This document shows, piece by piece, positions 14,355-29,928 of a stretch of 64,000 nt of DNA. The stretch's first letter is position 1. Each line of letters begins with the position of its first letter. The translations under genes and the position numbers were made by a program. Below the pieces are notes generated by a model, which saw only the letters and a list, made by a program, of their open reading frames with translations, was not told the origin of the DNA and did no database searches. Origin of the DNA: Thermoanaerobaculia bacterium (GTDB lineage: Bacteria > Acidobacteriota > Thermoanaerobaculia > Gp7-AA8); NCBI GenBank assembly GCA_035468985.1, contig DATISF010000038.1, positions 31,652-95,651 of the forward strand, given 5' to 3'.

Positions 14355-15084
14355 TGGCGATCTCCTGCGGCGCGTCCGATCCGATCGAGAGCCCGATCGG
14401 ACAATGGAACGCGCTCTGCGCCGCTTCGGGTAATCCGGCGTTGGCGATGTCCTGCCGCAGCCGCTTCGCTTTCGAGTTGCTGCCGATGACGCCCAGGTAC
14501 GGGAATTGGCGCGTGCGAAGGATCTCCACGAGGATCGGGCTGTCGCTCGAATGTCCCATCGTCATCAGCACCACGAACGCGTTGTCGGGCGCCTTCGCGA
14601 CCTCCGCCGCCATGTTGCTCGTCTGCACTTTCCTCAGCTTCGGCGATTCGGGAAGCCGCGCCAGCCATTCCTCGCGCGGATCGATGCAGGTGATCCGGCA
14701 ATCGAGCCTGAGCAGCAGATCGACGAGCGATTGCGCCACGTGACCGGCGCCGAACACGACGATGTTCCATCGCGTCACGTTGAAGGCCTCGAAGTAGACG
14801 CGCACGATGCCGCCGCAGGTCATGCCGATATCTTTCTCCAGGCTCCACTGGAAGTACCGCGTCTTCGGCGCGGACGGGTCGGCGAGCAGCTTCTTCGCCT
14901 CCTCGAGGCAGCGAACCTCGATGCGTCCGCCGCCGGTCGTGCCGAAATACCGTCCCTCGGACGTCACGAGCATCTTCGAGCCGCGATCCTGCGGCGTCGA
15001 GCCGAGCGTGTCCACGACGGTGACCGAGACGAACGGCACCTTCGACGCCGCGAGCTCGTTGAGCGCCTCGAAGTACGTGGGCAT
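14305..15084 (-). CDS. xdhC: XdhC/CoxI-family molybdenum-cofactor insertion chaperone
   Basis: FVSVTVVDTLGSTPQDRGSKMLV in the N-domain and IVVFGAGHVAQSL in the Rossmann-like C-domain. Confidence 0.85.
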   Translation of the reverse strand: MPTYFEALNELAASKVPFVSVTVVDTLGSTPQDRGSKMLVTSEGRYFGTTGGGRIEVRCLEEAKKLLADPSAPKTRYFQWSLEKDIGMTCGGIVRVYFEAFNVTRWNIVVFGAGHVAQSLVDLLLRLDCRITCIDPREEWLARLPESPKLRKVQTSNMAAEVAKAPDNAFVVLMTMGHSSDSPILVEILRTRQFPYLGVIGSNSKAKRLRQDIANAGLPEAAQSAFHCPIGLSIGSDAPQEIAISVAAQLLQERDRFAG

Positions 15085-15090
15085 CGCGAT

Positions 15091-15096
15091 TAGTAT
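15091..15096 (+). promoter_or_regulatory. -10-like TAGTAT 6 nt upstream of the allB ATG, inside the 18-nt xdhC/allB divergent gap (possible leaderless start)
   Basis: cgcgatTAGTATcctcgcATG, with no SD. Confidence 0.35.
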
Positions 15097-15102
15097 CCTC
15101 GC

Positions 15103-16449
15103 ATGACCGTCCTCCGCTCAAAACGAGTGGCCACCAACGGGACCGTGGGCCCCGCGGACATCCACGTCGAAGACGGCCGAATCACGGGCGTGCAACCGAG
15201 AACTGAGAACCGAGAACCGAGGACTCTCGACTTCGGCGATCTCGTGATCATGCCCGGCGTCGTCGACTCGCACGTTCACGTCAACGAGCCGGGGCGTACG
15301 GAATGGGAAGGCTTCGAGACCGCAACCCGCGCCGCGGCGGCCGGCGGGATCACCACGATCGTCGACATGCCGCTCAACTCCATACCGCCGACGACGACGG
15401 TCGACGCGCTCTATGAGAAAGCGCACGCGATGGCGGGCAAGCTGCGCGTCGATGTCGGCTTGTGGGGCGGCGTGATCCCCGGCAACCTCCACGAGCTTCG
15501 GGTCATGCTCGAGCAGGGCGCCCTCGGCTTCAAGTGCTTCCTCGTGCATTCGGGCGTCGACGAGTTCCCGAATGTGAATGAACGCGAGCTGCGCGATGCC
15601 GCACGCGAGCTCGCCAGTACCGGCGCGCCGCTGCTGGTGCACGCAGAATTGCCCGAGCACGTAGGTCCGACTCTCCAGTCGGACCGGGCCGGCTCGAGAG
15701 CCGGCCCTACCTCGGAGTACGCGACCTACCTCGCCTCCCGCCCGCCAGCCGCCGAGGACGAAGCCATCAAACTCCTTCTGCGCGTCTGCGAAGAAACGGG
15801 TGCGCGCATTCACATCGTCCATCTCTCGTCGGCAAACGCACTCGACACGCTGCGCCTCGCACGTGGCCGCAAGTTGCCGCTGAGCGCGGAAACGACGCCC
15901 CACTACCTTCATTTCGAGGCGGAACAGATACCGCCCGGCCGCTGCGAGTTCAAATGCGCGCCGCCGATCCGCGAGCACGAGAATCGCGAGCGCCTGTGGC
16001 GCGGACTCGAGGAAGGCCTCATCGAGCTCGTCGTCAGCGACCACTCACCCTGCACACCGCATCTGAAAGGCAACGACTTCATGAAGGCCTGGGGCGGTAT
16101 CTCGTCGGTTCAATTCGTGCTGCCGATCGTTTGGACGGAAGCGGAGCGGCGCGGACACACGATCGGCGACGTCGCACGGTGGATCTGCGAAGGTCCGGCT
16201 CGCCTCGCGGGATTGCCCGGCAAAGGTGCGATCGCCGAAGGCAACGACGCCGATTTCGTCATCTGGTCGCCGGAGGAGTCGTTCGTCGTCGAGGCGTCGA
16301 TCATCGAGCACCGGCACAAGGTCACGCCGTACGCCGGCGAGACGCTGCGCGGGGTCGTGAAGGAGACCTGGCTTCGCGGGGAGCGCATTTTCGCCGGCGG
16401 CAGGCAAGTGGGCGACGGGCGCGGCGAATGGCTGCGTCGGCTACCATAA
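15103..16449 (+). CDS. allB: allantoinase
   Basis: Cyclic amidohydrolase HxH (VDSHVHVNEPGRTEWEGF), GFKCFL, and allantoinase-type length and context. Confidence 0.92.
   Translation: MTVLRSKRVATNGTVGPADIHVEDGRITGVQPRTENREPRTLDFGDLVIMPGVVDSHVHVNEPGRTEWEGFETATRAAAAGGITTIVDMPLNSIPPTTTVDALYEKAHAMAGKLRVDVGLWGGVIPGNLHELRVMLEQGALGFKCFLVHSGVDEFPNVNERELRDAARELASTGAPLLVHAELPEHVGPTLQSDRAGSRAGPTSEYATYLASRPPAAEDEAIKLLLRVCEETGARIHIVHLSSANALDTLRLARGRKLPLSAETTPHYLHFEAEQIPPGRCEFKCAPPIREHENRERLWRGLEEGLIELVVSDHSPCTPHLKGNDFMKAWGGISSVQFVLPIVWTEAERRGHTIGDVARWICEGPARLAGLPGKGAIAEGNDADFVIWSPEESFVVEASIIEHRHKVTPYAGETLRGVVKETWLRGERIFAGGRQVGDGRGEWLRRLP
15661..15712. repeat. GC-rich double-hairpin repeat unit lying in frame inside allB
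   Basis: gtaggTCCGACTctccAGTCGGAccgGGCCGGCTcgagAGCCGGCCctac. It has the same architecture as the intergenic copy at 27088-27150. Confidence 0.8.
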
Positions 16450-16456
16450 CCTCGCC

Positions 16457-17908
16457 ATGCCGGACTTTCGCGACCTGGTCGACCTTGCCGGCGAGCGGCT
16501 CGGCGCAAGCGTCGTCTACGCCAACGACGACTTCTTCGCCGAGAAAGAGAACCTCATCAAAGAGGCGAAGCCCGTCTGGAAAGAACACGAGTACACGGAC
16601 CGCGGCAAGTGGATGGACGGTTGGGAATCGCGCCGCCGACGCACTCCGGGGCACGACTTCGCCATCGTCCGCCTCGGCGCCCGCGGAGTGATCCGCGGCG
16701 TCGTGGTCGATACGAGCTTCTTTCGCGGGAACTTTCCCGAGGCGTGCTCGATCGATGCCGTGGCGCTGGATCCTGACGCGTCGGTCGATGATCTTCTTGT
16801 CGCGAATTGGCAGGCGATCCTTCCGAAGGTCAGCCTGAAGGGCGACTCGGAGAATCTTTTCGCGGTCGACAGCCCGAACGCCAGCGCGCACATCCGACTC
16901 AACATCTACCCCGATGGCGGCGTGGCGCGGCTGCGGATTCACGGCCAGCCCGTTCCCGACTGGCACCACTCCGGCGGCCTCGGCGGCGACGTTGATCTCG
17001 CCGCGGTCGAGAACGGCGGCGAAGTGCTCGCGTGCAGCGACATGTTCTTCGGCCCCAAGAACAACCTGATCATGCCCGGCCGTGCGCGCAACATGAGCGA
17101 CGGATGGGAGACACGCCGCCGCCGCGGGCCCGGACACGACTGGGTCATCGTCAGGCTGGCGGTGGAAGGCATCGTGGACCGTATCGAAGTCGACACGAAT
17201 CACTTCAAGGGCAACTACCCTGACACGGCGTCGATCGATGGATCGATCGATGGCGATTCATGGAGCGAGGTCCTTCCGCGCACGAAGCTTCAACCGCACA
17301 TGCGCCATTTCTTCGTCGAGGAGTTGTCTGCGCGCGGGCCGTTCACACAGCTTCGGCTGAACGTTTTTCCCGACGGCGGGGTGAGCCGGTTGCGCGTATG
17401 GGGAAAAGCGACGGAGAGCGGGCGGCGAGCCGCGGTCGTGCGCCACGTCGACACGCTCGCCGATCCCGATCGCGATCTGCGCAACTGCTGCGCGTCATCG
17501 AAATGGATCGCCATGATGGCCGAGGGACGGCCGTTCACCGACTGGAAAGAGATCATCGCGGCCTCGGACCGCATCTGGTCAGGGCTGAAGCCCGAAGATT
17601 GGATGGAAGCGTTTCGCGCCCATCCGCGCATCGGCGAGAAGCGCGACAGCGTGCGCTGGTCATCGGACGAACAGTCGGGAACCCGCGCCGCGTCGAACGC
17701 CACGATGGACGCACTCGCGAAAGGCAATCGCGAGTACGAAGAGAAATTCGGTCACGTGTTTCTGATCTGCGCGACCGGACGATCCGCCGATGAGATGCTC
17801 GCCACTCTCCGCGAGCGGATGAAGAACGATGCGGCGACGGAAATGCGCATCGCCGCCGAAGAGCAGCGCAAGATCACCGCGCTGCGGCTGGAGAAACTGG
17901 TGCTCTGA
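16457..17908 (+). CDS. bifunctional allantoicase / OHCU decarboxylase (fusion)
   Basis: Two allantoicase repeats (GWESRRRRTPGHD and GWETRRRRGPGHD), followed by OHCU decarboxylase motifs (HPRIGEK, FGHVFLICATGRSADEML). Confidence 0.9.
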   Translation: MPDFRDLVDLAGERLGASVVYANDDFFAEKENLIKEAKPVWKEHEYTDRGKWMDGWESRRRRTPGHDFAIVRLGARGVIRGVVVDTSFFRGNFPEACSIDAVALDPDASVDDLLVANWQAILPKVSLKGDSENLFAVDSPNASAHIRLNIYPDGGVARLRIHGQPVPDWHHSGGLGGDVDLAAVENGGEVLACSDMFFGPKNNLIMPGRARNMSDGWETRRRRGPGHDWVIVRLAVEGIVDRIEVDTNHFKGNYPDTASIDGSIDGDSWSEVLPRTKLQPHMRHFFVEELSARGPFTQLRLNVFPDGGVSRLRVWGKATESGRRAAVVRHVDTLADPDRDLRNCCASSKWIAMMAEGRPFTDWKEIIAASDRIWSGLKPEDWMEAFRAHPRIGEKRDSVRWSSDEQSGTRAASNATMDALAKGNREYEEKFGHVFLICATGRSADEMLATLRERMKNDAATEMRIAAEEQRKITALRLEKLVL

Positions 17909-18231
17909 TGGCCGGCATCACCACCCATGTGCTCGACACCGCAAACGGCCGCCCGGCTTCGGGCGTCGGCGTGACGCTGGCCATCCTTCACGACAACGAG
18001 TGGCGCGAGCTCGCTCACGGAGCAACCGACAACGAGGGACGCCTCCCCACGCTCACCGAAGGAATCGCCCTTCGTCGGGGGACGTATCGATTGACATTCG
18101 CGACCGGCGAGTACAACCAGGGGTTCTTCCCCGAGGTCTCGATCGTTTTCCGTGTCGACGACCCAGCTCAGCATTACCACGTTCCGCTGCTGCTGAGTCC
18201 GTTCGGATATTCAACGTACAGAGGCTCCTAG
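17908..18231 (+). CDS. uraH: 5-hydroxyisourate hydrolase (transthyretin-like)
   Basis: 107 aa with an N-terminal THVLD and the C-terminal YRGS tetrapeptide. The ATG overlaps the upstream TGA. Confidence 0.93.
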   Translation: MAGITTHVLDTANGRPASGVGVTLAILHDNEWRELAHGATDNEGRLPTLTEGIALRRGTYRLTFATGEYNQGFFPEVSIVFRVDDPAQHYHVPLLLSPFGYSTYRGS

Positions 18232-18233
18232 GC

Positions 18234-18416
18234 AGAACCTCTGCGCAAGTCGTTGTTCACGTCATCCTGAGCCGCGAAGACGGCGAAGGATCTCGAAATC
18301 GCAGGCAGGCCCGGGGCCGACTGAGAGTCGGCCCTACGTGATCGCAGGCGTTTTCGCATCCTGAGATCCTTCGTCGCGCTTCGCCGGCTCAGGATGACGA
18401 CTTGTGCAGCGGTTCC
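18234..18416. repeat. MITE/REP-like palindromic element (opposite orientation) carrying a nested GC hairpin at 18313-18340
   Basis: Same terminal and internal arms as 8351-8491. It starts 2-3 nt after the uraH TAG. Confidence 0.85.
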
Positions 18417-18466
18417 CTGACCGGCATCCGCGTTGCTACTCCTAATGATTGAAAGGAGTCGCGAAC

Positions 18467-18706
18467 ATGAACAACACAACTCGCCGTACTCCGGCCGAAG
18501 TGGCCGCGGACGCATCGATCGAGCACACCGGAAAAGGTCTTTTCAACCAGGTCAAGGGCACGGTCAAGCGGCTGTTCGGCAAGAATGTCGAAGGCCGTTA
18601 CGATCAGCTCAAAGGACGCGCGCAGGAGACGCTCGGCCGTTACGAAGCGAAAGAAGCACGACTGGAGAGCAGGGACGACGACGATACGAAGCGTTCGTCA
18701 TCCTGA
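18467..18706 (+). CDS. CsbD-like general stress protein
   Basis: An SD (aaaggag) lies 8 nt upstream of ATG 18467. Contains FNQVKGTVKRLFGKNVEG..DQLKGRAQE repeats. Confidence 0.8.
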   Translation: MNNTTRRTPAEVAADASIEHTGKGLFNQVKGTVKRLFGKNVEGRYDQLKGRAQETLGRYEAKEARLESRDDDDTKRSSS

Positions 18707-18766
18707 ATCGCGCAGACGACGAAGGATCTCGGTCGACGAGATCCTTCGCTTCGCTCAGGATGACGT
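18696..18766. repeat. short hairpin version of the REP family
   Basis: CGTCATCCTGAatcgcgcagacgacGAAGGATCTCggtcgacGAGATCCTTCgcttcgcTCAGGATGACG. It spans the convergent stops of the CsbD-like gene and the 18755 gene. Confidence 0.8.
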
Positions 18767-20074
18767 GTTCGCCCGATCCCGCCGTCCCTTCAGAATCTTC
18801 ACGAATGACCGGCTCCGCAGCTCCGCGAGCGTGAGCCCTGTGGCGAGCGCTTCGTCCTCGCTCAGCGCGCCGCTGTTGATCCCGCGAATGAAGTAGTTGA
18901 GAAGTCCCTGCCCCGTCGCCGCGTCATCGAACACGTCGCCGACAAGGGTGGCCTGCCCCGCCTTCTGCATGAAATTGCGGAGGCGGTCGGTGGCGAGGTC
19001 GAGCCCCTCGAGAAAGAACGCGTAGATTGCCGCGTACCGCGTCGGGAGCTGCGCCGGATGCAGATCCCAACCCTGGTAGTACGCGTGAACGAGCGAATGG
19101 CGGATGTGATCGACGTGCAGACGCCACGCGCGATGAACGGTCGCGACGTCGCCGGGATGAGCCGGGATGGGCATGATGTTCGTCGCGCCGTCGGACAGCC
19201 ACAGTCCCGTTCCGGCGTATGCGATCTGCATCATGTGCCGCGCGAAATCGCACGCCGGGTGATCCATCCGCTGTTCCGATGCCGTGATGTTGCAGCTCGC
19301 CGTGTAGTCGTACGTTCCGAAATGCGCGGCAACCGCACGTCCGCGCGCGGCATCGAGAAACTTCGGCAGATTCGACTCTCCGCGCGCATCGAGGATCGAC
19401 TGCGTCGTCTCGATCATGAATTCGAGGCGGAGCGTCCCCGCGGCGAGACCGAGCCGCGGCTCGATTCGGTCGTAGAGATCGGCCAGGACCGTGACCTGCT
19501 CCGGCAGCTGAATCTTCGGAAGGGTCACGACGAATCCGGACGGCAGCTTCCCTCCCGTCTCCTGCAGCAGCGTGGTCAGGAAAATGTCGAACGTGCGGAT
19601 CGAGCGCCGCATCAGCTCGAGTGTGAACGGCTTGATGCGGATCCCGATAAACGGCGGGAGCGTGCGGTCGCGCATCCCGCGCGCCACCTCGCGCGCCGCC
19701 GCTTCGGCGTGTCCGTCTTCTTCCTCGTCCGGACGATTGCCGTAACCATCTTCGAAATCGATGCGGAAGTCTTCGACCGCCTCCGATTGCAGCTTCCCCG
19801 TGACCCGCCCCCACACCCGTTCCGCGAGCGCCTCGGGTGTCCCGATCGCCGCCGCAAACGTGCGCGCATCGCGGCCGTACTCATGCAGAACACGAAGTGC
19901 GGTCTCGCCGAGCTTCTTCGCCGTATCCGACTTGAAGAGATGCGCGCCGCCGTACACGGTGTGCACAGGCTGACGCTCTCCTGCCGAACCGGGGAAGCGT
20001 TTGTTGAACGGGACGAGCGCGGATTCCAGCGCGCGCGTCGTGCTGGCGATCTCTTTTTCGTCGAGTGTCTTCAA
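18755..20074 (-). CDS. HpcH/HpaI/CitE-like TIM-barrel C-C lyase family protein (tentative)
   Basis: FRIDFEDGYG, LEFMIETTQS and FGTYDYTAS resemble the metal-ligand strands of that superfamily. The TTG start overlaps the puuD-like stop (TTGA). Confidence 0.6.
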   Translation of the reverse strand: MKTLDEKEIASTTRALESALVPFNKRFPGSAGERQPVHTVYGGAHLFKSDTAKKLGETALRVLHEYGRDARTFAAAIGTPEALAERVWGRVTGKLQSEAVEDFRIDFEDGYGNRPDEEEDGHAEAAAREVARGMRDRTLPPFIGIRIKPFTLELMRRSIRTFDIFLTTLLQETGGKLPSGFVVTLPKIQLPEQVTVLADLYDRIEPRLGLAAGTLRLEFMIETTQSILDARGESNLPKFLDAARGRAVAAHFGTYDYTASCNITASEQRMDHPACDFARHMMQIAYAGTGLWLSDGATNIMPIPAHPGDVATVHRAWRLHVDHIRHSLVHAYYQGWDLHPAQLPTRYAAIYAFFLEGLDLATDRLRNFMQKAGQATLVGDVFDDAATGQGLLNYFIRGINSGALSEDEALATGLTLAELRSRSFVKILKGRRDRANTSS

Positions 20075-20850
20075 TGGCTTCTCACGATGTGTGCTGCGAT
20101 CCAGCCGATCACGGTGAGCACACCGAGAACGGCCCAGTTGTATCGGCTTCCGTAGAGCGCGACCGGAAAGTGATTGCCGATCATGATGAGGAGCACGGGC
20201 ATGATCAGAAACGTGTTGTGCTTCGAGCGGTTCTTGGCGCGCTCGCCGAGGCGCTGATCGGGCTCGCCGCCTTCTCTGGCCACGCGGACCATCTGCCGCT
20301 GTGCGGGAAGAATGCGCACCCAGACGTTCGCGGCCATCATCGTTCCCATCGCCGCTCCCACGTGCATGAACGCGGCGCGCGGCGACATCAGCCGGTCGAG
20401 GCCATACGTCGCGGCCATGATCAGCAGCCAGCCGGCGAACATCGCCACGCGGTTGTCACGCGCGAGGACCAGGTCGTAGAGGAACCACGACACGACGAGC
20501 ATCGCCAGTCCGGCTCCGATCGCCTGGGCGTTGTTCAACTTCCCCGGCTCGCCGTCGCTCATCAGGCCGCCGAGGTAGTAGACGATGCCGAGAAGGACGA
20601 ACCCGCTGATCCAGGTCAGCGCCGCCTCCCATTTGAACCAGTGGAGATTGTGCGAGCCCGACGGCTTCGAGAGCTTCTCGACGCGATAGAAGCCGCCGCT
20701 GTGCACCATCCACACTTGATCGGGGTCGGTCGTGTGAAAGCGCCGGTCGAGCCAGGTGAAGTACCAGGTCGCGCCGATCCAGAGGATTCCGGCGAAGACA
20801 TGGAACCATCTCACGCTCAGGTTGAGCCATTCTTGAAGCGTGTAGTTCAT
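20071..20850 (-). CDS. puuD: membrane urate hydroxylase PuuD-like protein (Urate_ox_N-type domain only)
   Basis: WFHVFAGILWIGATWYFTWLD and a multi-TM profile. There is no Cys in the protein, hence no cytochrome c domain. Start moved to ATG 20848-20850. Confidence 0.7.
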   Translation of the reverse strand: MNYTLQEWLNLSVRWFHVFAGILWIGATWYFTWLDRRFHTTDPDQVWMVHSGGFYRVEKLSKPSGSHNLHWFKWEAALTWISGFVLLGIVYYLGGLMSDGEPGKLNNAQAIGAGLAMLVVSWFLYDLVLARDNRVAMFAGWLLIMAATYGLDRLMSPRAAFMHVGAAMGTMMAANVWVRILPAQRQMVRVAREGGEPDQRLGERAKNRSKHNTFLIMPVLLIMIGNHFPVALYGSRYNWAVLGVLTVIGWIAAHIVRSH

Positions 20851-20867
20851 ACGGTCGTGGGTCCCCC

Positions 20868-21623
20868 ATGTTATCGTCACACCCTCCCGTGACGGTACAA
20901 CTCGAGGTTCCGGACAACGTCCGCAAGGTCGTGGACGACGTCGTCGCCGGCGCGCGAGCGGCGTTCGGCGATGCGCTGCGCTCCGTCGTTCTCTACGGAT
21001 CGGCGGCGGAGGGGCGACTGCGTGCGTCATCGGACCTCAATTTGCTCTTCGTGCTCTCGAAGTTCGACGCCGAGCAGGCCAATCCTTTCCGCGAGCTGTT
21101 CCGGTTCGCGCAGTCGGCGATCAACCTGACCTCGATGTTCCTGCTGCAGGACGAGCTCTCGGCGGCGGAGGATGCGTTCGCGCAGAAGTTCGCGGACATC
21201 CGCCGCAGGCACGTCGTTCTCTTCGGCGAAAACCCCTTTCCCGAGAAGGCGATCGCACGCGATGCGATCATTCGCCGCCTCCGGCAGATCCTGCTCAATC
21301 TCTCGATCCGCTCGCGCGAGATGTACGTCTCGCGCAGTCTCCGCGAAGAACAATGTGCAGTGACGGCCGCGGAGATCGCGGGGCCGCTGCGAAGCGCCGC
21401 GTCGACGATCCTCGAGCTGGAGCGCGGCGAGATCGTTCCGCCGAAAGAAGCGCTGTCGAAAGTCGTCCAGGAGCTCGGCCGTCCGGAACTGATCGAGCTT
21501 CTTCCGCATCTCTCCGAGGCGAGGGAGCGGCGGAGTCTTCCGGCGGGACGGGCGGCGGCGATCCTGTTCCAGACCCTCCAGCTCGTGCGGACTCTCTATC
21601 AGAAGTCGCTCACGATCCGATGA
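20868..21623 (+). CDS. Pol-beta-fold nucleotidyltransferase-like protein with degenerate DxD (DLN)
   Basis: VVLYGSAAEG-x8-SSDLNLLFVL, plus a helical C-terminal half. The stop overlaps the next start (ATGA). Confidence 0.7.
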   Translation: MLSSHPPVTVQLEVPDNVRKVVDDVVAGARAAFGDALRSVVLYGSAAEGRLRASSDLNLLFVLSKFDAEQANPFRELFRFAQSAINLTSMFLLQDELSAAEDAFAQKFADIRRRHVVLFGENPFPEKAIARDAIIRRLRQILLNLSIRSREMYVSRSLREEQCAVTAAEIAGPLRSAASTILELERGEIVPPKEALSKVVQELGRPELIELLPHLSEARERRSLPAGRAAAILFQTLQLVRTLYQKSLTIR

Positions 21624-22552
21624 ATCCGTTCAACCTCACCGGCCCGGAGTTCCTCGCGTTCTACGCGATCCTCTCGCTGGTGACGATCGCCGCCGCATGG
21701 TTCATCCGGCGAAGGCAGGAGCTCGAGCTCGCTCGCGATTTGAGCCCGATCAAACGCGGCCTGATCGCATCGCATACGCGCAGCGCCGATTTCACGACGC
21801 CGACGACTGACCCGTATCTGATCGCTTTTCTTCGTGGCGGCAAGAATGAGCTGGTACGAGTGGCCACCGTTTCGCTCATCGATCGCGGCCTGCTGACGAT
21901 CGCCGGCGACACGATCGTGGCCTCGCACACTGGAAATTCGCTGGAAGCGAGAAAAAAGATCGAGCAGGACCTCATCCATTTTTTCCACACGCCCCAGTCC
22001 TACGACGCGGTGTTCTCGACGAGCCTGTTCAACGCCGATGCCACCGAATACGAGTATCAACTGGTGCAGCAGAGATTTCTGCCCGACGACGACATCGACC
22101 AGATCCGCAACACGATCTTCGGCATCGCCGCGGTGATCCTCGGCGGCGTCGCCGCGATCAAGCTGCTGGTCGCGCTGTCGCGCGGCCGGACCAACATCCA
22201 GTTCCTGCTCTTCTTCGGAGTGGGTGCGATCATCCTGCTGCGGAAGGCGGTGTTCGGCCGGCAGACTGCCATCGGCGAGAGGTTTCTCGGCGAGGTCCGG
22301 AATCTCTTTCGTTCGCTCGAGCTTCGCGCCGCGCAGATCCGGCCGGGCGGCTCGACCGGCGACGTCGCGCTCCTCGCCGCGGTCTTCGGAGTCACGGCCC
22401 TCACCGGAGCGGGATTCGCGTGGGCGAAGTCGATCTTCCCGCGGGCACAGACAGGATCGTCGTGGTCATCGTGCGGATCGTCGTGCGGATCGTCCTGCGG
22501 ATCGTCGTGCGGCGGAGGTTGCGGCGGCGGATGTGGAGGGTGCGGCGGATGA
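21620..22552 (+). CDS. polytopic membrane protein with a C-terminal Ser/Cys/Gly repeat tail (TIGR04222-like, from memory)
   Basis: MNPFNLTGPEFLAFYAILSLVTIAAAWFI and further hydrophobic segments. It ends SSWSSCGSSCGSSCGSSCGGGCGGGCGGCGG. There are ATGA overlaps at both ends. Confidence 0.75.
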   Translation: MNPFNLTGPEFLAFYAILSLVTIAAAWFIRRRQELELARDLSPIKRGLIASHTRSADFTTPTTDPYLIAFLRGGKNELVRVATVSLIDRGLLTIAGDTIVASHTGNSLEARKKIEQDLIHFFHTPQSYDAVFSTSLFNADATEYEYQLVQQRFLPDDDIDQIRNTIFGIAAVILGGVAAIKLLVALSRGRTNIQFLLFFGVGAIILLRKAVFGRQTAIGERFLGEVRNLFRSLELRAAQIRPGGSTGDVALLAAVFGVTALTGAGFAWAKSIFPRAQTGSSWSSCGSSCGSSCGSSCGGGCGGGCGGCGG

Positions 22553-23613
22553 GATTCGGCCTGAGCTGGCGTCCGGAGATCGGGTCGGGCATTCTCCGGC
22601 ACCTCGACGAGATCGACGCGGTCGAGATCATGGCGGAGGACTTCGTCGACGCCGATCGAGCGTCGCGCCGCGCGCTCCGCTTTCTCGGCGAGCAGGTGCC
22701 CGTCGTCGTCCACGCGACGACCCTCGGACTGGCATCCACGGAGCCGGCCGCGCGCAAGCGCCTCGACGCGATCGCGCGCGTCATCGAATGGCTGCGGCCG
22801 GAGTTCTGGTCGGAGCATCTGGCATTCGTGCGCGCGGGCGGAAGCGAGATCGGCCATCTCGCCGCGCCGCCGCGGAACGACGAGATGCTCGAAGGTCTCA
22901 CGCACAATGTCGAAGTCGCGCGGGGCGTGATCGGATCGGCTCCACTTCTCGAGAACATCGCCTCGCTCGTCGACCCGCCTTTCAGCACCTACGACGAGGC
23001 CGAGTGGCTCACCGCGGTCACGCGCACCACCGGATCGAAGCTGCTCCTCGACCTTCACAATCTGCACGCGAACGCCACCAACTTCGGATTCGACGCCCAT
23101 TCGGTGATCGCTCGGCTTCCGCACGAGCGCATCGGCGCGATTCACCTCGCCGGCGGAAAACGGATCGAAGGCGATCGCATCCTCGACGATCACCTGCACG
23201 CCGTTCCCGACGAGGTCTACACACTCCTCGGCGAACTCGATGCGGATGCGACGGTGATCATCGAGCGCGACGGGCAGTATCCGGAGTTCGGGGTGTTGCT
23301 TGACGAATTGAGAAGGGCGCGTGCGGTGGAGAAGACACGAGGACAGAGGGATTCGGCGACTTGGGGCGCCGCACTCCGAGGCCACGAGTCCTCGAGTCCT
23401 CAGGTCCTCCCCTTCCTGGCAAAGCTCTACACCGACCCAACGACGAGAGCGCAGTTCCTCGGGAGCCCGTTCGAAACAGCCCGGTGCGCCGGCTTCTCGG
23501 CGCAGGACGCGCGGACGCTCGCCTCCATCGATCTGGAGGCGGTCACACTCGCGGCGCGGAGCTACGAGAAAAAGCGTACTCGGAGATCCGCATCAGGATC
23601 TCTTCACACGTAG
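22549..23613 (+). CDS. DUF692 / multinuclear non-heme iron oxidative enzyme (MNIO)-family protein with a fused ~60-aa C-terminal helical domain
   Basis: MRFGLSWRPEIG, VVVHATTLGLAS, WSEHLAF, LLENIAS, LLLDLHNLHANA, IHLAGG and LDDHLHAVPDEV match the DUF692 TIM-barrel pattern. The tail is FLAKLYTDPTTRAQFLGSPFETARCAGFSAQDARTLASID. Confidence 0.85.
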   Translation: MRFGLSWRPEIGSGILRHLDEIDAVEIMAEDFVDADRASRRALRFLGEQVPVVVHATTLGLASTEPAARKRLDAIARVIEWLRPEFWSEHLAFVRAGGSEIGHLAAPPRNDEMLEGLTHNVEVARGVIGSAPLLENIASLVDPPFSTYDEAEWLTAVTRTTGSKLLLDLHNLHANATNFGFDAHSVIARLPHERIGAIHLAGGKRIEGDRILDDHLHAVPDEVYTLLGELDADATVIIERDGQYPEFGVLLDELRRARAVEKTRGQRDSATWGAALRGHESSSPQVLPFLAKLYTDPTTRAQFLGSPFETARCAGFSAQDARTLASIDLEAVTLAARSYEKKRTRRSASGSLHT

Positions 23614-25849
23614 CGGGGACGCGCAGCTTCGGGATGTCGCCGTTCGAAACGAACGACAGCGCGTGCTTCACCGCGCACCACACCGAGATCGACATCAAGA
23701 GAGGCGGCTCGCCGACCGCTTTGCTGCCGGCGATGTTCACCGGGTTGTCGTGCTCGATCCAGTCGACGTTGAACACCTCGGGAAGATCGTTGATGTTGGG
23801 GATTTTGTACGTCGTCGGCGAATGCGCCAGCAGCTCGCCGCCCGCGGTGTAGCGGAGATCCTCTGTCGTCAGCCAGCCCATGCCTTGAATGAAGCCGCCG
23901 GTCATCTGGCCGCGATCGACGCCGGGATTGATGGGCCGGCCGATGTCCATGAGCACATCGCTGCGCAGGACTTTCATCTCTCCGGTGAAGCGATCGATGA
24001 GCACTTCCGAGCACGCCGTTCCCATCGTGTAGTAGAGGAACGGATGGCCCTGGCCGCCTTCGCTCGTCCAGTCCCAGTCGATGCGAGCGGTGGCGTAGAA
24101 GCCCTTTTCGCCGAGTGGGATGCGGGACCGATAGCAGATGCCGACGAGGTCGGCGAAGGACATCTTCTTCGTCAAATCGTTCTTGTCCCGGACGAGACCG
24201 TCTCCGAAGACGACGTCGGCTGCACCCAATTCTTTCTTCGCCGCATCTGCCATCCGCGCTTTGATCTTGCGGCAGGCGTCGACGGCCGCGGCGCCGTTCA
24301 GATCGGCGGCGCTCGACGCGGCGGTGGCCGACGTGTTGTTGTTCTTTTCGGTCGAGGTGACCATCACCAGCACGCGATCGAGCGTCACGCCAAGTTCGTC
24401 GGCGACAAGCTGCCGGATCTTCGTGTTGACGCCCTGCCCCATCTCCGTGGCGCCGGTCGAGACCTGCACGCTGCCGTCGAGAAACACGTTCACGAGCGCG
24501 TTGGCCTGGTTCAGGAACTTCGTGTTGAACGAGATGCCGAACTTCACCGCGGTGAGCGCCATCCCCTTGAGGTGCGTTTTCGACGAGGCGTTGAAGCGAT
24601 TCACCTCGTCCATGCGGCGGTTGTATTCGCAGCGCTGCGGCAGCTCGGTGAAGAGGCGCGGAAGCGTGTTGCGCTCGACCACCTCACCGTATGGGGTGGT
24701 GTTGCGCGTCTCGACCTGATAGCAGTTCGTGCGGCGGACTTCGAGCGCGTCCTTCTTCAGGAACGCGGCGATCTCCTGCATCACGTTCTCGATCGTGATC
24801 ACGCCCTGCGGTCCGCCGAATCCGCGGAACGCCGTGTTGGGCGGCATGTTCGTCCGGCAGATCGTGCCGCGGATCTCGATGTGCGGGATGAAGTAGGCGT
24901 TTTCGGCGTGCGTCATGGCCCGCGCCATCACCGCCGGCGAGAGGTCGGCGTACGCTCCGCCGTCGGAGTAGAGATCGAACTTCGCCGCCACGATCTCGCC
25001 GCTGCGCCGGAATCCGATGCGATAGCGGTTGTGGAACGGGTGGCGCTTCCCCGTCACGTGCATGTCGTCGTCTTTGTTGTAGACCAGGCGTGCCGGCCGC
25101 CTGGTCTTCTGCGCGACGAGCGCCGCCATCACCGCGGGATGCGTGGCCTGGCATTCCTTGCCGCCGAATCCGCCTCCCATCCGCTTGGTGAGCACGACGA
25201 CTTCATTCATCGACAATCCGAGGAGGTGCGCGATGACCTCCTGCACCTCGGTCGGATTCTGCGTCGACGAGTGAACCGTGAGCTGCCCGCGCTCGCCCGG
25301 ATACACGATGACCGCCTGCGATTCGAGATAGAAGTGGTCCGCTCCCTGGTTCTCGAAAACACCTTCGAGGTAGTGATCCGCGGAAGCCATGGCCCGGTCT
25401 GGATCGCCGCGGCGAATCACGCGCGGATCGGGGAAGAAGTTGTTCGCGGCGATGGCCTCCTCGATCGTGAGGATCGGCTTCAACTCCTCGAGCTCGATGC
25501 GGATCGCTTTCTTTGCCTCGCGGATCGCGCGCGCGTTGTCGGCGGCAATGACCACAATCGGCTGCCCGCGGAACGTGCACTCCTCCTCGGCCAGCAGGAT
25601 CTCGTCCTTGTAAATCGGACCGAAGAGGTTCTGGTACAGATCGCGATACGTGAACAGCCCGACGATCCCGGCGATCGTGCGCGCCGCCTCGAGATCGAGC
25701 GAGCGGATGCGCGCATGCGCGAGTGGCGACCAGAGGAAGTCGACGACGAGCTCGTTTGGTAACGGCGCCATATCGTCGACGTAGATGGATTCGCCGGTCA
25801 CGTGGCCGATGGCGGAGTCGTGCGGGACGTTCTTGCCGACGACGGGCAT
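23543..25849 (-). CDS. xdhB: xanthine dehydrogenase, molybdopterin-binding subunit
   Basis: Start moved to ATG 25847-25849 (MPVVGKNVPHDSAIGHVTGES). Contains GGGFGGKE and other Mo-pterin domain motifs. 768 aa. Confidence 0.93.
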   Translation of the reverse strand: MPVVGKNVPHDSAIGHVTGESIYVDDMAPLPNELVVDFLWSPLAHARIRSLDLEAARTIAGIVGLFTYRDLYQNLFGPIYKDEILLAEEECTFRGQPIVVIAADNARAIREAKKAIRIELEELKPILTIEEAIAANNFFPDPRVIRRGDPDRAMASADHYLEGVFENQGADHFYLESQAVIVYPGERGQLTVHSSTQNPTEVQEVIAHLLGLSMNEVVVLTKRMGGGFGGKECQATHPAVMAALVAQKTRRPARLVYNKDDDMHVTGKRHPFHNRYRIGFRRSGEIVAAKFDLYSDGGAYADLSPAVMARAMTHAENAYFIPHIEIRGTICRTNMPPNTAFRGFGGPQGVITIENVMQEIAAFLKKDALEVRRTNCYQVETRNTTPYGEVVERNTLPRLFTELPQRCEYNRRMDEVNRFNASSKTHLKGMALTAVKFGISFNTKFLNQANALVNVFLDGSVQVSTGATEMGQGVNTKIRQLVADELGVTLDRVLVMVTSTEKNNNTSATAASSAADLNGAAAVDACRKIKARMADAAKKELGAADVVFGDGLVRDKNDLTKKMSFADLVGICYRSRIPLGEKGFYATARIDWDWTSEGGQGHPFLYYTMGTACSEVLIDRFTGEMKVLRSDVLMDIGRPINPGVDRGQMTGGFIQGMGWLTTEDLRYTAGGELLAHSPTTYKIPNINDLPEVFNVDWIEHDNPVNIAGSKAVGEPPLLMSISVWCAVKHALSFVSNGDIPKLRVPATCEEILMRISEYAFSRSSAPRV

Positions 25850-25870
25850 GGTGAGACTGGATTGTAGACC

Positions 25871-25948
25871 GGGACACCGGGACACCGGGATGCGCGGACT
25901 TGCGGTGCATCACTCCCACTCCCCGACTCCCCGTGTCCCCGCATCCCC
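25871..25948. repeat. G-rich/C-rich 7-8-mer arrays (GGGACACC x2, GGGATGCG; ...ACTCCCC GACTCCCC GTGTCCCC GCATCCCC); canonical G4N4 motif on the minus strand
   Basis: Read directly in the xdhB/methyltransferase divergent intergenic region. Confidence 0.8.
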
Positions 25949-26027
25949 TCTCTTTCAACACCCTTTCAAACGCCGATTACAACGGTCCGAGCCGATCGTA
26001 CTCGCACGAAAAAGGAGGAAGCACCCA

Positions 26028-27086
26028 ATGGAGCTCAACCAGGACAAACTCAACGATTTTCTCGGGAAGGCGGTCGTCGACATCGGGGCGACGCTGCATG
26101 CCGGGCTCGTCATCATCGGCGAGAAGCTCGGGCTCTACAAAACGCTCGCCCAGAGCGGCCCGCTCACGCCGGCCGAGCTGGCGCAGAAGACCGGCACGAC
26201 GGAACGCTACGTCCGTGAGTGGCTCAACTCGCAGGCCGCCGGCGGCTACGTCACGTACGAGGCGGCCACCGGCCGCTACTCGATGACGCCGGAGCAGGCC
26301 TTCACGCTGGCCGACGAGGACAGCCCCGCGTATCTCCCCGGCGCGTTCCAGCTCGTCACCTCCGCCATCAAGGCCGAGCCGAAGATCACCGAATTGTTCC
26401 GCAACGGCGGCGGGTTCGGATGGCACGAGCATGATCGCGGTCTGTTCGAGGGAACCGAGCGATTCTTCCGCCCGAACTACGTCGGCAATCTCGTCTCGTC
26501 ATGGATCCCGGCGCTGCAGGGCGTCGAAGAGAAGCTGAAGCGCGGTGCGAAAGTGGCCGACGTCGGCTGCGGCCACGGCGCGTCGACGATCCTCCTCGCC
26601 CAGGCCTATCCGAAGTCGACGTTCGTCGGATTCGACTACCACGGGCCGTCGATCGAAGCCGCACGCAAGGCGGCGGCGAAGGCCGGCGTGTCGGATCGCG
26701 TGAAGTTCGAGCAGGCCGCGGCGAAACAGTATCCCGGCAGCGGCTACGATCTCGTGGCGGTCTTCGACTGCCTGCACGACATGGGCGATCCGGTCGGCGC
26801 CGCGACGCATGTGCTGCGCTCCCTGGCCAAGGACGGCACCTGGATGATCGTCGAGCCGTTCGCCGGCGATCGCGTCGAGGACAACCTCAACCCGGTCGGG
26901 CGCGTGTTCTACTCGGCGTCGACGCTCGTCTGCACCCCCGCGTCGCGCTCCCAGGAAGTCGGCCTGGCCCTCGGCGCTCAGGCCGGTGAGACGCGCATCG
27001 CCGACGTGGTCAGGCGCGGCGGGTTCACGACGTTCCGCCGTGCGACGCAGACTCCGTTCAACCTCGTCTTCGAGGCCAAGGCCTAA
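26028..27086 (+). CDS. class I SAM-dependent methyltransferase
   Basis: An SD (aaaggagg) lies upstream of ATG 26028. Motif I is VADVGCGHGAS. The N-terminal region is winged-helix-like. Confidence 0.85.
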   Translation: MELNQDKLNDFLGKAVVDIGATLHAGLVIIGEKLGLYKTLAQSGPLTPAELAQKTGTTERYVREWLNSQAAGGYVTYEAATGRYSMTPEQAFTLADEDSPAYLPGAFQLVTSAIKAEPKITELFRNGGGFGWHEHDRGLFEGTERFFRPNYVGNLVSSWIPALQGVEEKLKRGAKVADVGCGHGASTILLAQAYPKSTFVGFDYHGPSIEAARKAAAKAGVSDRVKFEQAAAKQYPGSGYDLVAVFDCLHDMGDPVGAATHVLRSLAKDGTWMIVEPFAGDRVEDNLNPVGRVFYSASTLVCTPASRSQEVGLALGAQAGETRIADVVRRGGFTTFRRATQTPFNLVFEAKA

Positions 27087-27087
27087 A

Positions 27088-27150
27088 CATGTGGGGCCGA
27101 CTCTCAGTCGGTCCCACGGCCGGCCGGCTGGAGAGCCGGCCCTACGTGGC
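27088..27150. repeat. GC-rich double-hairpin repeat unit (intergenic copy)
   Basis: catgtggGGCCGACTctcAGTCGGtCCcacggccGGCCGGCTggagAGCCGGCCctacgtggcatg. Confidence 0.8.
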
Positions 27151-29928
27151 ATGATGACACCTTCAACCATGCTTGAACTTCGCCTTCTCGGCGAACCGGA
27201 AGTGTTGCGGGACGGCCATGCCGTCCCGCTTCCCGCGTCCAAGAAGTCGCGCGCGCTGCTCGCTTATCTCGCGGTGACCGGCCGGCCGCATCTTCGCGAG
27301 CGCCTCTGCGAACTTTTGTGGGAAGGGCCGGACGATCCGCGCGCCGCTCTGCGATGGAGCCTGACGAAACTGCGGCCGCTGATCGAGCCGCATCTCGTCG
27401 CCGGCCGCGATCACGTCGAGTTTCGAGCGGACGGCGCGGCGGTCGACATCCATCGGCTGTGCGCGCCCGCGAACGCGACGACCGAGCACCTCGAAGAATG
27501 CGCCGCGCTGTTCCGCGGCGAGCTTGCCGAGGGGCTCGATCTGCCCGGATGCTTTCGATTTCAGCAGTGGTGCGCCGCGGAGCGGGAACGCTTCCGCCAG
27601 AACCACGTCGCGATCCTCGCCGAGCTGACCGAACGCCTCGGCGCCGATGATCGAGCGCTCGTGTACGCGCGCCGGCGCGTGCAGGTCGACCCCTTCGACG
27701 AACAGTCGCACGCCGCGCTGATCCGCCTGCTCGCAACGCTGGGTGATCGTCAGCAGGCGATGCATCAGTACGAGCACTGCCGAATGTTGTTCGAGCGCGA
27801 GCTGGGCGGGCGGCCGGGGGAGATCGTTGAGGATGCGCGGCGGATGATCGGAAAGACCACTCCCCTCTCCCCGCCGCGGGGGGAGAGGGTGGCCGAAGGC
27901 CGGGTCAGGGGCGATTTCGTCGGCCGTGCGAACGAGCTCTCCATCATCGAATCGACCACCGATCCCATCCTGATCCTCGGCGAGCCCGGCATCGGCAAAA
28001 GCCGCCTGCTCGAGGAAGCGCGGCGCCGCACGCCGGGACTCTACGGCCGCGCATTCGCCTCCGAGATGGCCCGCCCCTACGGCGTCTGGCTCGACGCGCT
28101 GGAAGACTTTCCCGTCGAGAGCGATCGCCCGCGTCTGTTCGATGCGATCGTCGACAAGCTGAACGGCGTGGAGCTGCTCGAGCTCGACGACATCCAGTGG
28201 ATCGACGAAGCCTCGGCCGCCCTCCTCCATTACGTGGCGCGAAAAACATCGCTGCGCATCGTTTGCGCGGCGCGGCTCGGCGAGATCGACGACAACCCGC
28301 ACGCGTCGCGCCTCGTTCACGAGCTGCGCTTCACGCACGTCGATCTCGGTCCGATGTCGAGCGAGGAGATCGGCGCACTCGTCGCCGACTCGCCCGAGCG
28401 CAAGCGCGTGATCGAGGACAGCGGCGGCAATCCCCTCTTCGCGCTCGAGCTGGCGCGTTCGCAACAGGCGGGAACGCTCACGCAGGTCATCGCCGGCCGC
28501 CTCGGTCAACTCGAGGGGCGGGCGCGCGATCTCGTCTCCTGGGCCGCCGCCATCGGACGCCGCTTCGACGGCGACATCCTCGGACGGGCGACGGAGATGC
28601 CGTCCGGCGAGATGCTCGCCGCGCTGGAGAAGCTGGAGCGATCGGCGATCATCCGCGCTTCCGAAAGCGGCGGCTGCTACGACTTCACCCACGATCTCGT
28701 GCGCGATGCGGCGTACCAGGCCATCTCCGGGCCGCGGCGCGTGCTCGTGCACCGCAACATCGCCCGCGCTCTGCTGTCGGTTCACGATCCCGACAGCGCC
28801 CTCGCCGGCGATGTCGTCCGCCATGCCTCACTGGCCGGCGATCACGACACGGCGGTGAAGGCGGCGATCGCCGCGGGCCGGCGCTGCCTGCGCATGTTCG
28901 CGTGGGCGGACGCAATCGAGATCGCCCGTCTGGCTCTGCAGTTTGCGGAATCGCTGCCGCAGATCGAACGCGTCAAGCGCCAGATGCACCTGCTGGAGAT
29001 CATCGTCGTCTCGCGCGGACCGATCTCCGAGCGGCTGCCGTTTGCGACGCGTGTCACGGAGCTGATCGACGAAGCCTACAAGCTCGGACTGTCACAAATC
29101 GCGGCCATCGGCTCACACCTGTCGGCCTGTCTCTACGCCGACTCCGACAACCTTGGCGATGCGGCGCAGCAGTCGATCCGCTCGTCGGAGCTCATGCGCT
29201 CGGGCGATCCGCGCGCCGCCGCGTATACGATGGCCAACACCGCACGCTGCCTCCTGTTCATCGAGCGCGACATCCCGCGCGCGCAGTCTCTGCTCGGCGA
29301 AGTGGAGTCGATCATCCGCGAGGTCGGCGGCGAGCACGTCGAGATTCATCTCGGTCTCGGCTATCTCCACGCGCATCGCGGCGACAAGGAGCTTGCGATC
29401 TCCGAATTGCAGCGCGCGTTCGACATGGCCTCGCGAGCGCGGGATCACTGGCGCGAATGGTGCGCGGGCGCTCGCCTTCTGACGCTGGCCCTCGAATGGC
29501 GCGACTTCGATGCGGCACGGCGCTGGTGCGAACGCCTCGAGCCGGTGGCCGAGAAAATGCCGGGCGGAAGCGAAGGAGTGAAGACCGAAATGCTCGCCGC
29601 GGTCCTTCGATACGCGACACTGGGCGACGAAGCGAATTTGCGGGCGAAACTCGAGGAGCTGCGCATCGTCGACAGCAAGAGCGACCTGGCGTGGAGCCTC
29701 GCCTACGTCGCCGAGCTGGAACTCGAGCGTGGCGAGATGGAGAAGGCTCGCCGCGATGCGCAGGAAGCGCTCGCCGCGGCGGAGACCGTGGGCCGCCCCA
29801 GCGATGCCGCCATCGCCCGCCTGATCCTCGGATTACCGATCGATGAAGCGAAGCGCGACGACTTGAGTGATCGGGCCAGGAAGAAGGAGAGGAATCATGC
29901 CGAGCATGGTCGTGGAGCAAACGTTTGA
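27151..29928 (+). CDS. SARP/AfsR-type transcriptional regulator (BTAD + P-loop ATPase + TPR-like)
   Basis: LRLLGEPEVLRDG..., ALIRLLATLGDRQQAMHQYEHCRMLFERELG, Walker A LILGEPGIGKS, and a long helical C-terminus. Start ATG 27151 (27169 is also possible). Confidence 0.85.
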   Translation: MMTPSTMLELRLLGEPEVLRDGHAVPLPASKKSRALLAYLAVTGRPHLRERLCELLWEGPDDPRAALRWSLTKLRPLIEPHLVAGRDHVEFRADGAAVDIHRLCAPANATTEHLEECAALFRGELAEGLDLPGCFRFQQWCAAERERFRQNHVAILAELTERLGADDRALVYARRRVQVDPFDEQSHAALIRLLATLGDRQQAMHQYEHCRMLFERELGGRPGEIVEDARRMIGKTTPLSPPRGERVAEGRVRGDFVGRANELSIIESTTDPILILGEPGIGKSRLLEEARRRTPGLYGRAFASEMARPYGVWLDALEDFPVESDRPRLFDAIVDKLNGVELLELDDIQWIDEASAALLHYVARKTSLRIVCAARLGEIDDNPHASRLVHELRFTHVDLGPMSSEEIGALVADSPERKRVIEDSGGNPLFALELARSQQAGTLTQVIAGRLGQLEGRARDLVSWAAAIGRRFDGDILGRATEMPSGEMLAALEKLERSAIIRASESGGCYDFTHDLVRDAAYQAISGPRRVLVHRNIARALLSVHDPDSALAGDVVRHASLAGDHDTAVKAAIAAGRRCLRMFAWADAIEIARLALQFAESLPQIERVKRQMHLLEIIVVSRGPISERLPFATRVTELIDEAYKLGLSQIAAIGSHLSACLYADSDNLGDAAQQSIRSSELMRSGDPRAAAYTMANTARCLLFIERDIPRAQSLLGEVESIIREVGGEHVEIHLGLGYLHAHRGDKELAISELQRAFDMASRARDHWREWCAGARLLTLALEWRDFDAARRWCERLEPVAEKMPGGSEGVKTEMLAAVLRYATLGDEANLRAKLEELRIVDSKSDLAWSLAYVAELELERGEMEKARRDAQEALAAAETVGRPSDAAIARLILGLPIDEAKRDDLSDRARKKERNHAEHGRGANV

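Follow-up and report, generated by a model that had tools for sequence, protein, structure and literature searches.

The DNA described here is a stretch of 64,000 nucleotides, called the window below, from contig DATISF010000038.1 (positions 31,652 to 95,651 of the forward strand) of a Thermoanaerobaculia bacterium in the Acidobacteriota (assembly GCA_035468985.1). It contains a cassette of three genes (ORF1, ORF2 and ORF3) for a nucleotidyltransferase (NTase)-like protein, a TIGR04222 membrane protein with a cysteine-rich C-terminal tail, and a DUF692 enzyme, that is a multinuclear non-heme iron oxidative enzyme (MNIO), which carries a small helical module at its C-terminus (Table 1). The genes are chained by ATGA start/stop overlaps at 21620-21623 (ORF1/ORF2) and 22549-22552 (ORF2/ORF3). 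This chain had been described in an earlier note made from the sequence (the original prediction), and its coordinates and overlaps were reproduced by a sequence check and by independent gene calls, the same three genes being given by an independent gene caller on the source contig (ENA metagenome assembly, Logan contig). In another record an alternative GTG start at 20889 is used for ORF1, which gives a protein of 244 amino acids.

Table 1. Genes and features of the cassette, in window coordinates.
Feature	Coordinates	Strand	Description
ORF1	20868..21623	+	251 aa; dedicated AadA-like two-domain protein of predicted nucleotidyltransferase fold
ORF2	21620..22552	+	310 aa; TIGR04222 membrane protein, candidate substrate
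ORF2 C-terminal Ser/Gly/Cys low-complexity tail	22448..22549	+	residues 277-310, 7 Cys; predicted modification site
12-nt tandem repeat GGATCGTCGTGC, 5.2 copies	22454..22512	+	found by Tandem Repeats Finder (score 83); codes for the GSSC repeats in the tail
ORF3	22549..23613	+	354 aa; DUF692/MNIO enzyme with C-terminal helical domain
ORF3 catalytic domain, DUF692/MNIO TIM barrel	22549..23328	+	residues 1-260; PF05114 match; closest to the BufB/HvfB clade
ORF3 NHLP/LigA-like helical module	23404..23577	+	residues 286-343 (FLAKLYTD...IDLE..LAARSYEKKR)

The cassette was compared with about 200 related loci, anchored on the MNIO, on ORF1 or on the small helical protein. Of 80 MNIO-anchored loci, which come from many phyla, about 60 have the same gene order, and a recurrence of this extent is far beyond chance. 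In the MNIO-anchored set the ORF2 profile matches 77/82 loci, an ORF2 homologue is found directly upstream of the enzyme in nearly all of 80, and the ORF1 profile matches in 59, where it is placed upstream of the ORF2 homologue. ORF1 is absent from 12 MNIO-anchored loci with at least 2 kb of upstream sequence. In ORF1-anchored loci with enough downstream sequence a TIGR04222 gene comes next in 64/64 and an MNIO gene is present in 62/64; the linkage of ORF1 is tightest to TIGR04222. Loci anchored on the small helical protein, which were found with a narrower alignment (A5) and are biased toward close relatives, have the MNIO immediately upstream in 43/44 and TIGR04222 in 42/44. The triad recurs across phyla, a point that the original prediction had named as a check. 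The cassette is made up of four mutually dedicated modules, namely the NTase-fold protein, the TIGR04222 protein, the MNIO and an NHLP/LigA-like helical module. No further gene family occurs in more than 8 of 81 loci; the cassette is therefore self-contained and its position in a purine cluster in the window incidental.

The closest relatives of ORF3 are found in metagenome-assembled genomes (MAGs) of Thermoanaerobaculia (Acidobacteriota). The cassette is carried by Acidobacteriota, Myxococcota, Chloroflexota, Methylomirabilota, Binatia, Verrucomicrobiota, Planctomycetota, Omnitrophota and Elusimicrobiota, and also by some Proteobacteria, for example Cupriavidus sp. YAF13. Two loci contain an ORF1-TIGR04222 pair with no adjacent MNIO gene. 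In the first, from a deltaproteobacterial MAG (L159, 4742-5662), the TIGR04222 protein keeps a normal Cys tail; in the second, from Omnitrophica (L120, 4733-7357), the frame that holds the TIGR04222 match extends to 874 amino acids. In these two cases the MNIO may be encoded elsewhere in the genome or may be dispensable.

ORF3 scores 211 bits (cutoff 25) with the family profile PF05114 (MbnB_TglH_ChrH), in which positions 2-261 of 263 are covered by residues 3-260. It had been assigned to DUF692 from a set of short motifs, every one of which is present. Twelve residues are invariant in 28 homologues (H55, H90, E135, D168, H170, N171, H199, D213, D214, H215, H217 and E239), and when ORF3 is aligned with the solved structures 3bww and 8hi7 (TglH) these residues fall on the corresponding motifs. 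We take them to correspond to the published iron ligands; on this assumption the metal-ligand columns, which the original prediction had put forward as a check on the enzyme, are invariant throughout the 28 homologues. ORF3 also scores against two more specific NCBIfam models, BufB (NF050167, 176.4 bits, cutoff 310) and HvfB (NF003818, 123.3 bits, cutoff 360). By these scores it is related to both and is a member of neither equivalog. BufB converts Cys to copper-binding 5-thiooxazoles (PMC11626156), and HvfB makes 5-thiooxazoles from Cys residues of oxazolin (bioRxiv 10.64898/2026.07.17.739211). ORF3 has no signal peptide.

The middle protein, ORF2, matches TIGR04222 with 76.3 bits (cutoff 43) over residues 14-261, which confirms the family membership that the original prediction had suggested. 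It is a polytopic protein with no signal peptide and has four hydrophobic segments, at residues 11-29, 166-184, 195-213 and 249-267. A 2025 survey counted more than 1,000 Cys proteins that have no signal peptide and whose genes directly precede those of MNIOs; about 40% of these are TIGR04222 proteins, and the MNIOs paired with TIGR04222 proteins fall into the large sequence cluster that also contains the bufferin and oxazolin enzymes (PMC12452194). An AlphaFold2 (AF2) model of ORF2 has a predicted local distance difference test score (pLDDT) of 86.5. The central soluble domain contains, in the model, a helix-helix-hairpin, winged-helix-like element at residues 65-101, which was considered as a possible RRE-type peptide-recognition element; a Foldseek search of the model against the PDB gave no structural relative (best E 0.7), and the 25 commonest Pfam families listed for 60 homologues include no PqqD-type match. 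Residues 41-58 (21740-21793) are an extra stretch of about 18 residues, inserted behind the first hydrophobic helix and lacking in most orthologues; it is of low confidence in the model (pLDDT below 50 at residues 52-56).

ORF2 ends in ...SCGSSCGSSCGSSCGGGCGGGCGGCGG. Of the last 27 residues 7 are Cys, and residues 281-310 are disordered in the model (pLDDT below 50). Across 73 orthologues the tail has 3-8 Cys (median 6) and is composed of 50% Gly, 24% Ser and 21% Cys. A Gly follows the Cys in 440/458 cases (96%), the Cys residues are mostly spaced by 4 or 3 residues, and 50/73 tails end in CGGCG[S/G]. Between the last hydrophobic segment and the tail is a nearly invariant L-F-P-x-A motif. The tail in the window is encoded by a 12-nt tandem repeat, which accounts for the variation in copy number. 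The tail had been singled out as the only Cys-rich substrate candidate, and it is the obvious one, given its conservation in the 73 orthologues and the translational coupling of the window gene to the MNIO.

The original prediction took the tail to be accessible from the cytoplasm. The family-mean number of Lys and Arg residues is 0.4 before the first hydrophobic segment, which is directly followed by an RRR cluster. The second loop, of 6 residues, has a mean of 1.6, the third loop one of 6.5 and the tail one of 2.1. Under the positive-inside rule this charge distribution favours an N-out/C-out arrangement, with the central domain in the cytoplasm and the tail in the periplasm, so that the mature tail is probably periplasmic and would be accessible from the cytoplasm only before insertion. 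The Ser/Gly/Cys-rich C-terminal regions of TIGR04222 proteins have also been predicted to be periplasmic in the survey (PMC12452194). Since ORF3 has no signal peptide, the enzyme would have to act before the last segment inserts, which is plausible because the last 30-40 residues should leave the ribosome only at termination.

On the enzyme side, residues of about 286-343 of ORF3 belong to a helical module with the family motif FLAxLYTDxxARxRFLAxPxxEAxxAGF...IDxxxLxLAARSFxxKR. This module had been noticed as a helical domain fused to the enzyme, as indeed it is in the window; among the relatives it is a discrete unit, encoded by a separate gene of 66-100 amino acids in 46/82 loci and fused to the MNIO in 29, and the stand-alone gene usually overlaps the MNIO stop codon by ATGA. 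The split-versus-fused (Rosetta-stone) pattern argues for a physical association of the module with the enzyme. A single-sequence search of 1.84 billion representatives with the module gave only 180 matches, mostly stand-alone proteins of 60-120 amino acids, and the four longer matches that were inspected (193-261 amino acids) are N-terminally truncated MNIO fusions.

The module is likely to belong to the NHLP/LigA clan, as judged from recurrent profile matches. NF038399 (NHLP clan) is matched by 32/33 module members (best E 3.4e-9), Pfam LigA by 23/33, Frankia_peptide by 18/33 and the NHLP-related TIGR04509 by 15/33; the window's own module is a weak match to NF038399, with 18.3 bits against a cutoff of 40 (E 0.0019). 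The proteins described by NF038399 seem to be the PflA/Os1348 precursors, which belong to a different MNIO pathway (PMC12636437). A PDB profile search with the module found the LigA-type domain of SonA at E of about 0.003, together with nitrile hydratase alpha chains. The five-helix LigA-type bundle of SonA is the leader of this protein, supplies most of the enzyme binding and is homologous to the fused region of OphMA (PMC8429565).

The absence of a canonical partner had been stressed in the original prediction. None of the three cassette proteins has a Pfam or NCBIfam match to the DUF2063, MbnC or TglI families, and no DUF2063, TglI or MbnC chain (3dee, 8hi7, MbnC) is found at E up to 10 in the PDB profile search with the module. 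This part of the claim stands, yet the cassette does offer partner candidates of its own, the helical module and the NTase-like protein. The survey reported 'PME-type 2' helical proteins in at least 10% of the clusters, many clusters having no visible partner (PMC12452194). The module profile was compared with a protein of 250 amino acids whose gene follows that of a distant MNIO (L002) and which may be a PME-type 2 partner, and hhalign gave a probability of 0.5%; this protein has no Pfam match.

After the invariant K-R the module is followed by 3-36 residues which are Arg-rich, have no conserved residue or end and are Cys-free in 23/33 members, which speaks against the module as a core-bearing precursor. 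Many stand-alone modules (L040, L052, L053, L058, L067, L073, L074 and L077) have Arg/Trp/Leu/Phe-rich ends, for example ...WFAAFKTRLSRLRFFRFVP. These ends look like amphipathic membrane-binding helices, which would suit recruitment to a membrane-protein substrate. The fused module of the window does not have such a stretch.

ORF1 was assigned to the Pol-beta NTase fold in the original prediction, with the second catalytic Asp replaced by Asn, and both points are upheld. Its matches in Pfam, including Polbeta and NTP_transf_2, and in NCBIfam are all below cutoff. An AF2 model (pLDDT 91.5) gave Foldseek matches in the PDB to AadA/ANT(3'')(9), ANT(9), ANT(4') and HalB at E 2e-7 to 1e-4, the best being AadA and ANT(9) (E about 2e-7, TM 0.62-0.64), and on this model ORF1 has a Pol-beta NTase fold. 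ORF1 carries LYGSAAEGRLRASSDLNLL, which is aligned to LYGSAVAGGLKPNSDIDLL of AadA, placing G-S...S-D-L-N (G44-S45...S55-D56-x-N58) over G-S...S-D-I-D. The family motif LYGSaAEGrlRxtSD[V/L]N is invariant, as are D56, E96 and many Arg/Lys residues in the helical domain.

The carboxylate pair of the catalytic G-S...D-x-D/E motif is not present in ORF1, where it reads D56-L-N58, and the Asn at the second carboxylate is found in 60/60 and 77/77 orthologues in two sets. A D-x-N motif normally abolishes two-metal catalysis in Pol-beta NTases, and a nucleotide-binding or scaffold role is therefore favoured. The view that the protein is probably inactive has to be amended in one respect. As judged from the motif, which is always D-x-N, ORF1 is probably non-catalytic and at most nucleotide-binding; it is a dedicated component of the cassette, not an incidental one, as the 64/64 linkage to TIGR04222 indicates.

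We put a probability of roughly 0.55 on a reading in which a BufB/HvfB-like MNIO and two helper modules make thiooxazole-type metal-binding groups on the membrane-tethered tail of ORF2. The cytoplasmic enzyme would oxidise 6-7 Cys of the (S/G)-C-G repeats in the tail, the products being 5-thiooxazole-type heterocycles or the isomeric oxazolone-thioamide, two forms that labelling methods are able to tell apart (bioRxiv 10.64898/2026.06.05.730506). The NHLP/LigA-like module would take the role of the DUF2063, MbnC or TglI partner by docking on or activating the MNIO, and it may bridge the enzyme to the soluble domain of ORF2. The NTase-like ORF1 would serve the membrane protein as a dedicated accessory. 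Insertion of the last hydrophobic segment and the tail into the membrane would follow the modification, so as to display a membrane-tethered tail that binds a thiophilic metal, most likely copper, on the periplasmic face.

Several points weigh against this reading. The chemistry on TIGR04222 proteins, the set of residues that it affects, the metal, the topology and what each helper does are inferred, and the chemistry of ORF3 could differ from that of BufB and HvfB, since its scores are below both equivalog cutoffs. ORF1 is absent from 12 adequately covered loci and so is not essential everywhere, and its invariant residues could signal real catalysis instead of a scaffold role. The likeness of the window's helical domain to NHLP/LigA is weak and comes from recurrent family matches below threshold. 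The topology is uncertain. The AF2 model splits the fourth hydrophobic segment of ORF2 into two short helices (246-256 and 264-272), and a re-entrant fourth segment with a cytoplasmic tail is possible. If the tail is destined for the periplasm, a cytoplasmic enzyme would have to modify it before insertion.

A further proposal, which we regard as tentative and short of probable, is that the cassette is a role-swapped pathway for a peptide that is made on the ribosome and modified after translation (RiPP). A leader-type docking domain without a core would be on the enzyme side, fused or stand-alone, and the core would be the tail of a polytopic membrane protein, recognised through the cytoplasmic winged-helix-like domain of ORF2 and escorted by a family-specific pseudo-nucleotidyltransferase. 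The outcome would be a string of 6-8 metal-binding thiooxazole groups, permanently tethered to the membrane on its periplasmic face, and, if true, a new kind of envelope metal buffer.

It is unlikely that ORF1 is instead an active nucleotidyltransferase, with a one-metal or otherwise altered mechanism, which nucleotidylates the Ser hydroxyls or the C-terminal carboxylate of the tail as an obligatory step before or after the MNIO. The conserved GS...SD motif, E96 and the many conserved Arg/Lys residues of the helical domain would be in keeping with such an enzyme, as would the match of the fold to the ATP-using AadA and ANT enzymes, and the tail is Ser-rich with a conserved extreme C-terminus. 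However, the second metal-binding Asp is Asn in all 77 of the 77 orthologues, and 12 otherwise complete cassettes have no ORF1.

We consider it a little less likely still that the helical module is a true RiPP precursor, with a leader and a short C-terminal core, which is self-modified when fused in the manner of the OphMA-type borosins; the ORF2 tail would then stay unmodified and act through its thiolates as a metal or redox site, or it would serve as receptor or exporter of the product. Against this, the residues that follow the K-R of the module are unconserved, Arg-rich and Cys-free in most members, ORF3 is closest to the Cys-modifying BufB/HvfB clade, and there would be no explanation for the highly conserved Cys-Gly tail that is encoded directly upstream. 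On the other hand, the nearest families of the module are RiPP precursors (NHLP clan, Os1348/PflA, Frankia_peptide and SonA), its split/fused pattern mirrors SonA/SonM versus OphMA, and some MNIOs modify non-Cys C-terminal residues (PMC12452194).

Release of the modified tail as a soluble Gly/Ser-rich metallophore, comparable to methanobactin, is improbable. The TIGR04222 body would in this case be a very large leader, docking or export platform, and the nearly invariant L-F-P-x-A between the last hydrophobic segment and the tail could be read as a site for cleavage; the survey also considered that the N-terminal moiety may take part in biogenesis (PMC12452194). Against it, neither a protease nor a transporter gene is conserved near the cassette in 81 loci, and besides LFPxA the tail has no recognisable cleavage motif.

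Least probable of all is a tail that is never enzymatically modified, its co-localisation with an MNIO acting on another substrate reflecting a shared metal or redox function: no MNIO is present in a third of the genomes with TIGR04222, C-proximal Cys residues are missing from more than a quarter of the TIGR04222 proteins (PMC12452194), and L159 has its pair with no adjacent MNIO, but nearly all loci of this subfamily show translational coupling and synteny of the genes and there is no alternative conserved small open reading frame that contains Cys.

The cassette is placed in the middle of a purine-degradation cluster at about 14500-25900 of the window (locus L083). The cluster includes genes for XdhC, an amidohydrolase, a fused allantoicase-OHCU decarboxylase (16457-17908), HIUase (17908-18231), a DUF6986 malate-synthase-like TIM barrel (18755-20074), a Urate_ox_N membrane protein and the large subunit of xanthine dehydrogenase. 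A functional tie of the cassette to xanthine dehydrogenase or urate oxidation was rejected, as the purine-catabolism neighbourhood is not conserved in the relatives. The cassette has the GC content, overall and at third codon positions, of the neighbouring genes, and thus there is no sign of recent transfer. No paralogues of ORF1, ORF2 or ORF3 are present elsewhere in the window, and a tblastn search of ORF1 and ORF3 against 72,556 plasmids gave zero matches.

The Urate_ox_N gene is divergent from ORF1 and its likeliest start is at 20850 (Met61 of a long open reading frame), which leaves a gap of 17 nt between the two starts, or 38 nt with the GTG at 20889. The promoters of both genes must therefore sit within neighbouring coding sequences. 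No sigma-70-like site was detected near 20848-20889, and a promoter and terminator scan of 20300-24000 gave nothing exceeding the shuffled expectation. A Pfam scan of the Urate_ox_N protein gave Urate_ox_N only, no cytochrome c domain was detected. At the other end of the cassette, a short basic tail follows the helical module of ORF3 up to the stop at 23613. This end converges with the 3' end of the minus-strand gene for the xanthine dehydrogenase molybdopterin subunit (23543-25885) in an overlap of 71 nt (23543-23613), which is kept in both gene calls on the source contig and of which the ORF3 share is the unconserved basic tail. Further along the window are a winged helix-turn-helix methyltransferase (25785-27086) and, at 26986-29928, a large BTAD/AAA_16 regulator (SARP/LuxR-like, about 920-980 amino acids) followed by a small SCO4226-like protein.

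The MNIOs are a fast-growing family of peptide-modifying enzymes, and the survey left the question of whether and how TIGR04222 proteins are modified where no partner gene is visible (PMC12452194). The cassette offers a concrete and testable answer to this question, in the form of two dedicated helper modules and a compact three-gene construct. If the tail is modified, RiPP-type chemistry would extend to a bona fide integral membrane protein, and the cassette would point to a membrane-tethered metal-buffering device with a wide distribution among soil phyla (Acidobacteriota, Myxococcota, Chloroflexota, Verrucomicrobiota and some Proteobacteria).

The system most similar to the cassette is the group of TIGR04222-MNIO clusters described by Jacob-Dubuisson and co-workers (Microb Genom 2025, PMC12452194), which have the same Cys-tailed TIGR04222 protein encoded before an MNIO and no DUF2063 gene. 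Cys-tailed TIGR04222 proteins have already been proposed in that study as MNIO substrates that do without a DUF2063 partner (PMC12452194). The core of the original prediction, an MNIO acting on the Cys tail of a membrane protein, had thus been published as a hypothesis in 2025; its statement that the architecture has no biochemical characterisation agrees with the literature searched, where none was found. The window contains a new member of this published, uncharacterised class. The dataset of the survey is mostly from Actinomycetota, whereas the present subfamily is mostly from Acidobacteriota and other soil phyla. The words 'nucleotidyltransferase' and 'LigA' do not occur in its text or in the supplements searched, and the survey makes no mention of an NHLP-type module. 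A leader-like module on the enzyme side and an NTase-fold protein with an invariant D-x-N appear to be undescribed in the literature searched, the helical module possibly being the same as the PME-type 2 or 'adjamnio-V' group of the survey.

ORF1 has the same two-domain fold (NTase and helical) and the same G-S...S-D motif as the AadA/ANT(3'')(9) adenylyltransferases. It differs from these in having D-x-N instead of D-x-D, in its identity of 13-17% and in its context, which is a membrane protein and not resistance.

The best-matching named family for the helical module (NF038399) appears to be that of the PflA/Os1348-type precursors, which are likewise part of an MNIO pathway, that of the MNIO-nitroreductase PflD. 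The C-terminal Gln-rich/ARMD core of PflA is conserved, and HEXXH and GNAT enzymes are encoded in its cluster, whereas the modules described here score below the family cutoff. In the split and fused borosins (SonA/SonM and OphMA) a LigA-type bundle docks on the modifying enzyme as a separate or fused domain. In borosins this bundle is part of the substrate, as its leader, and modification is carried out by a methyltransferase; the bundle of the cassette has no conserved core. The split and fused forms of the module also parallel the HvfB-HvfC system, in which activity is seen with an engineered fusion and the active mixed-valent diiron state depends on HvfC (bioRxiv 10.64898/2026.07.17.739211).

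The closest named MNIO families are those of the bufferins (BufA/BufB/BufC) and of oxazolin (HvfA/HvfB/HvfC), in which Cys residues become copper-binding 5-thiooxazoles and the product is extracytoplasmic; the EGKCG repeats of oxazolin share the Cys-Gly context of the ORF2 tail. The bufferin and oxazolin enzymes act on soluble peptides or proteins that have Sec signal peptides, and their partner is a protein with DUF2063 and a RiPP recognition element. In the present cassette the substrate candidate is a polytopic membrane protein with no signal peptide, and the partner candidates are NHLP/LigA-like and NTase-fold proteins. To our knowledge, every characterised MNIO acts on a small precursor peptide together with a partner of the DUF2063, MbnC or TglI type, and the four-module anatomy of the cassette differs from all of these systems.

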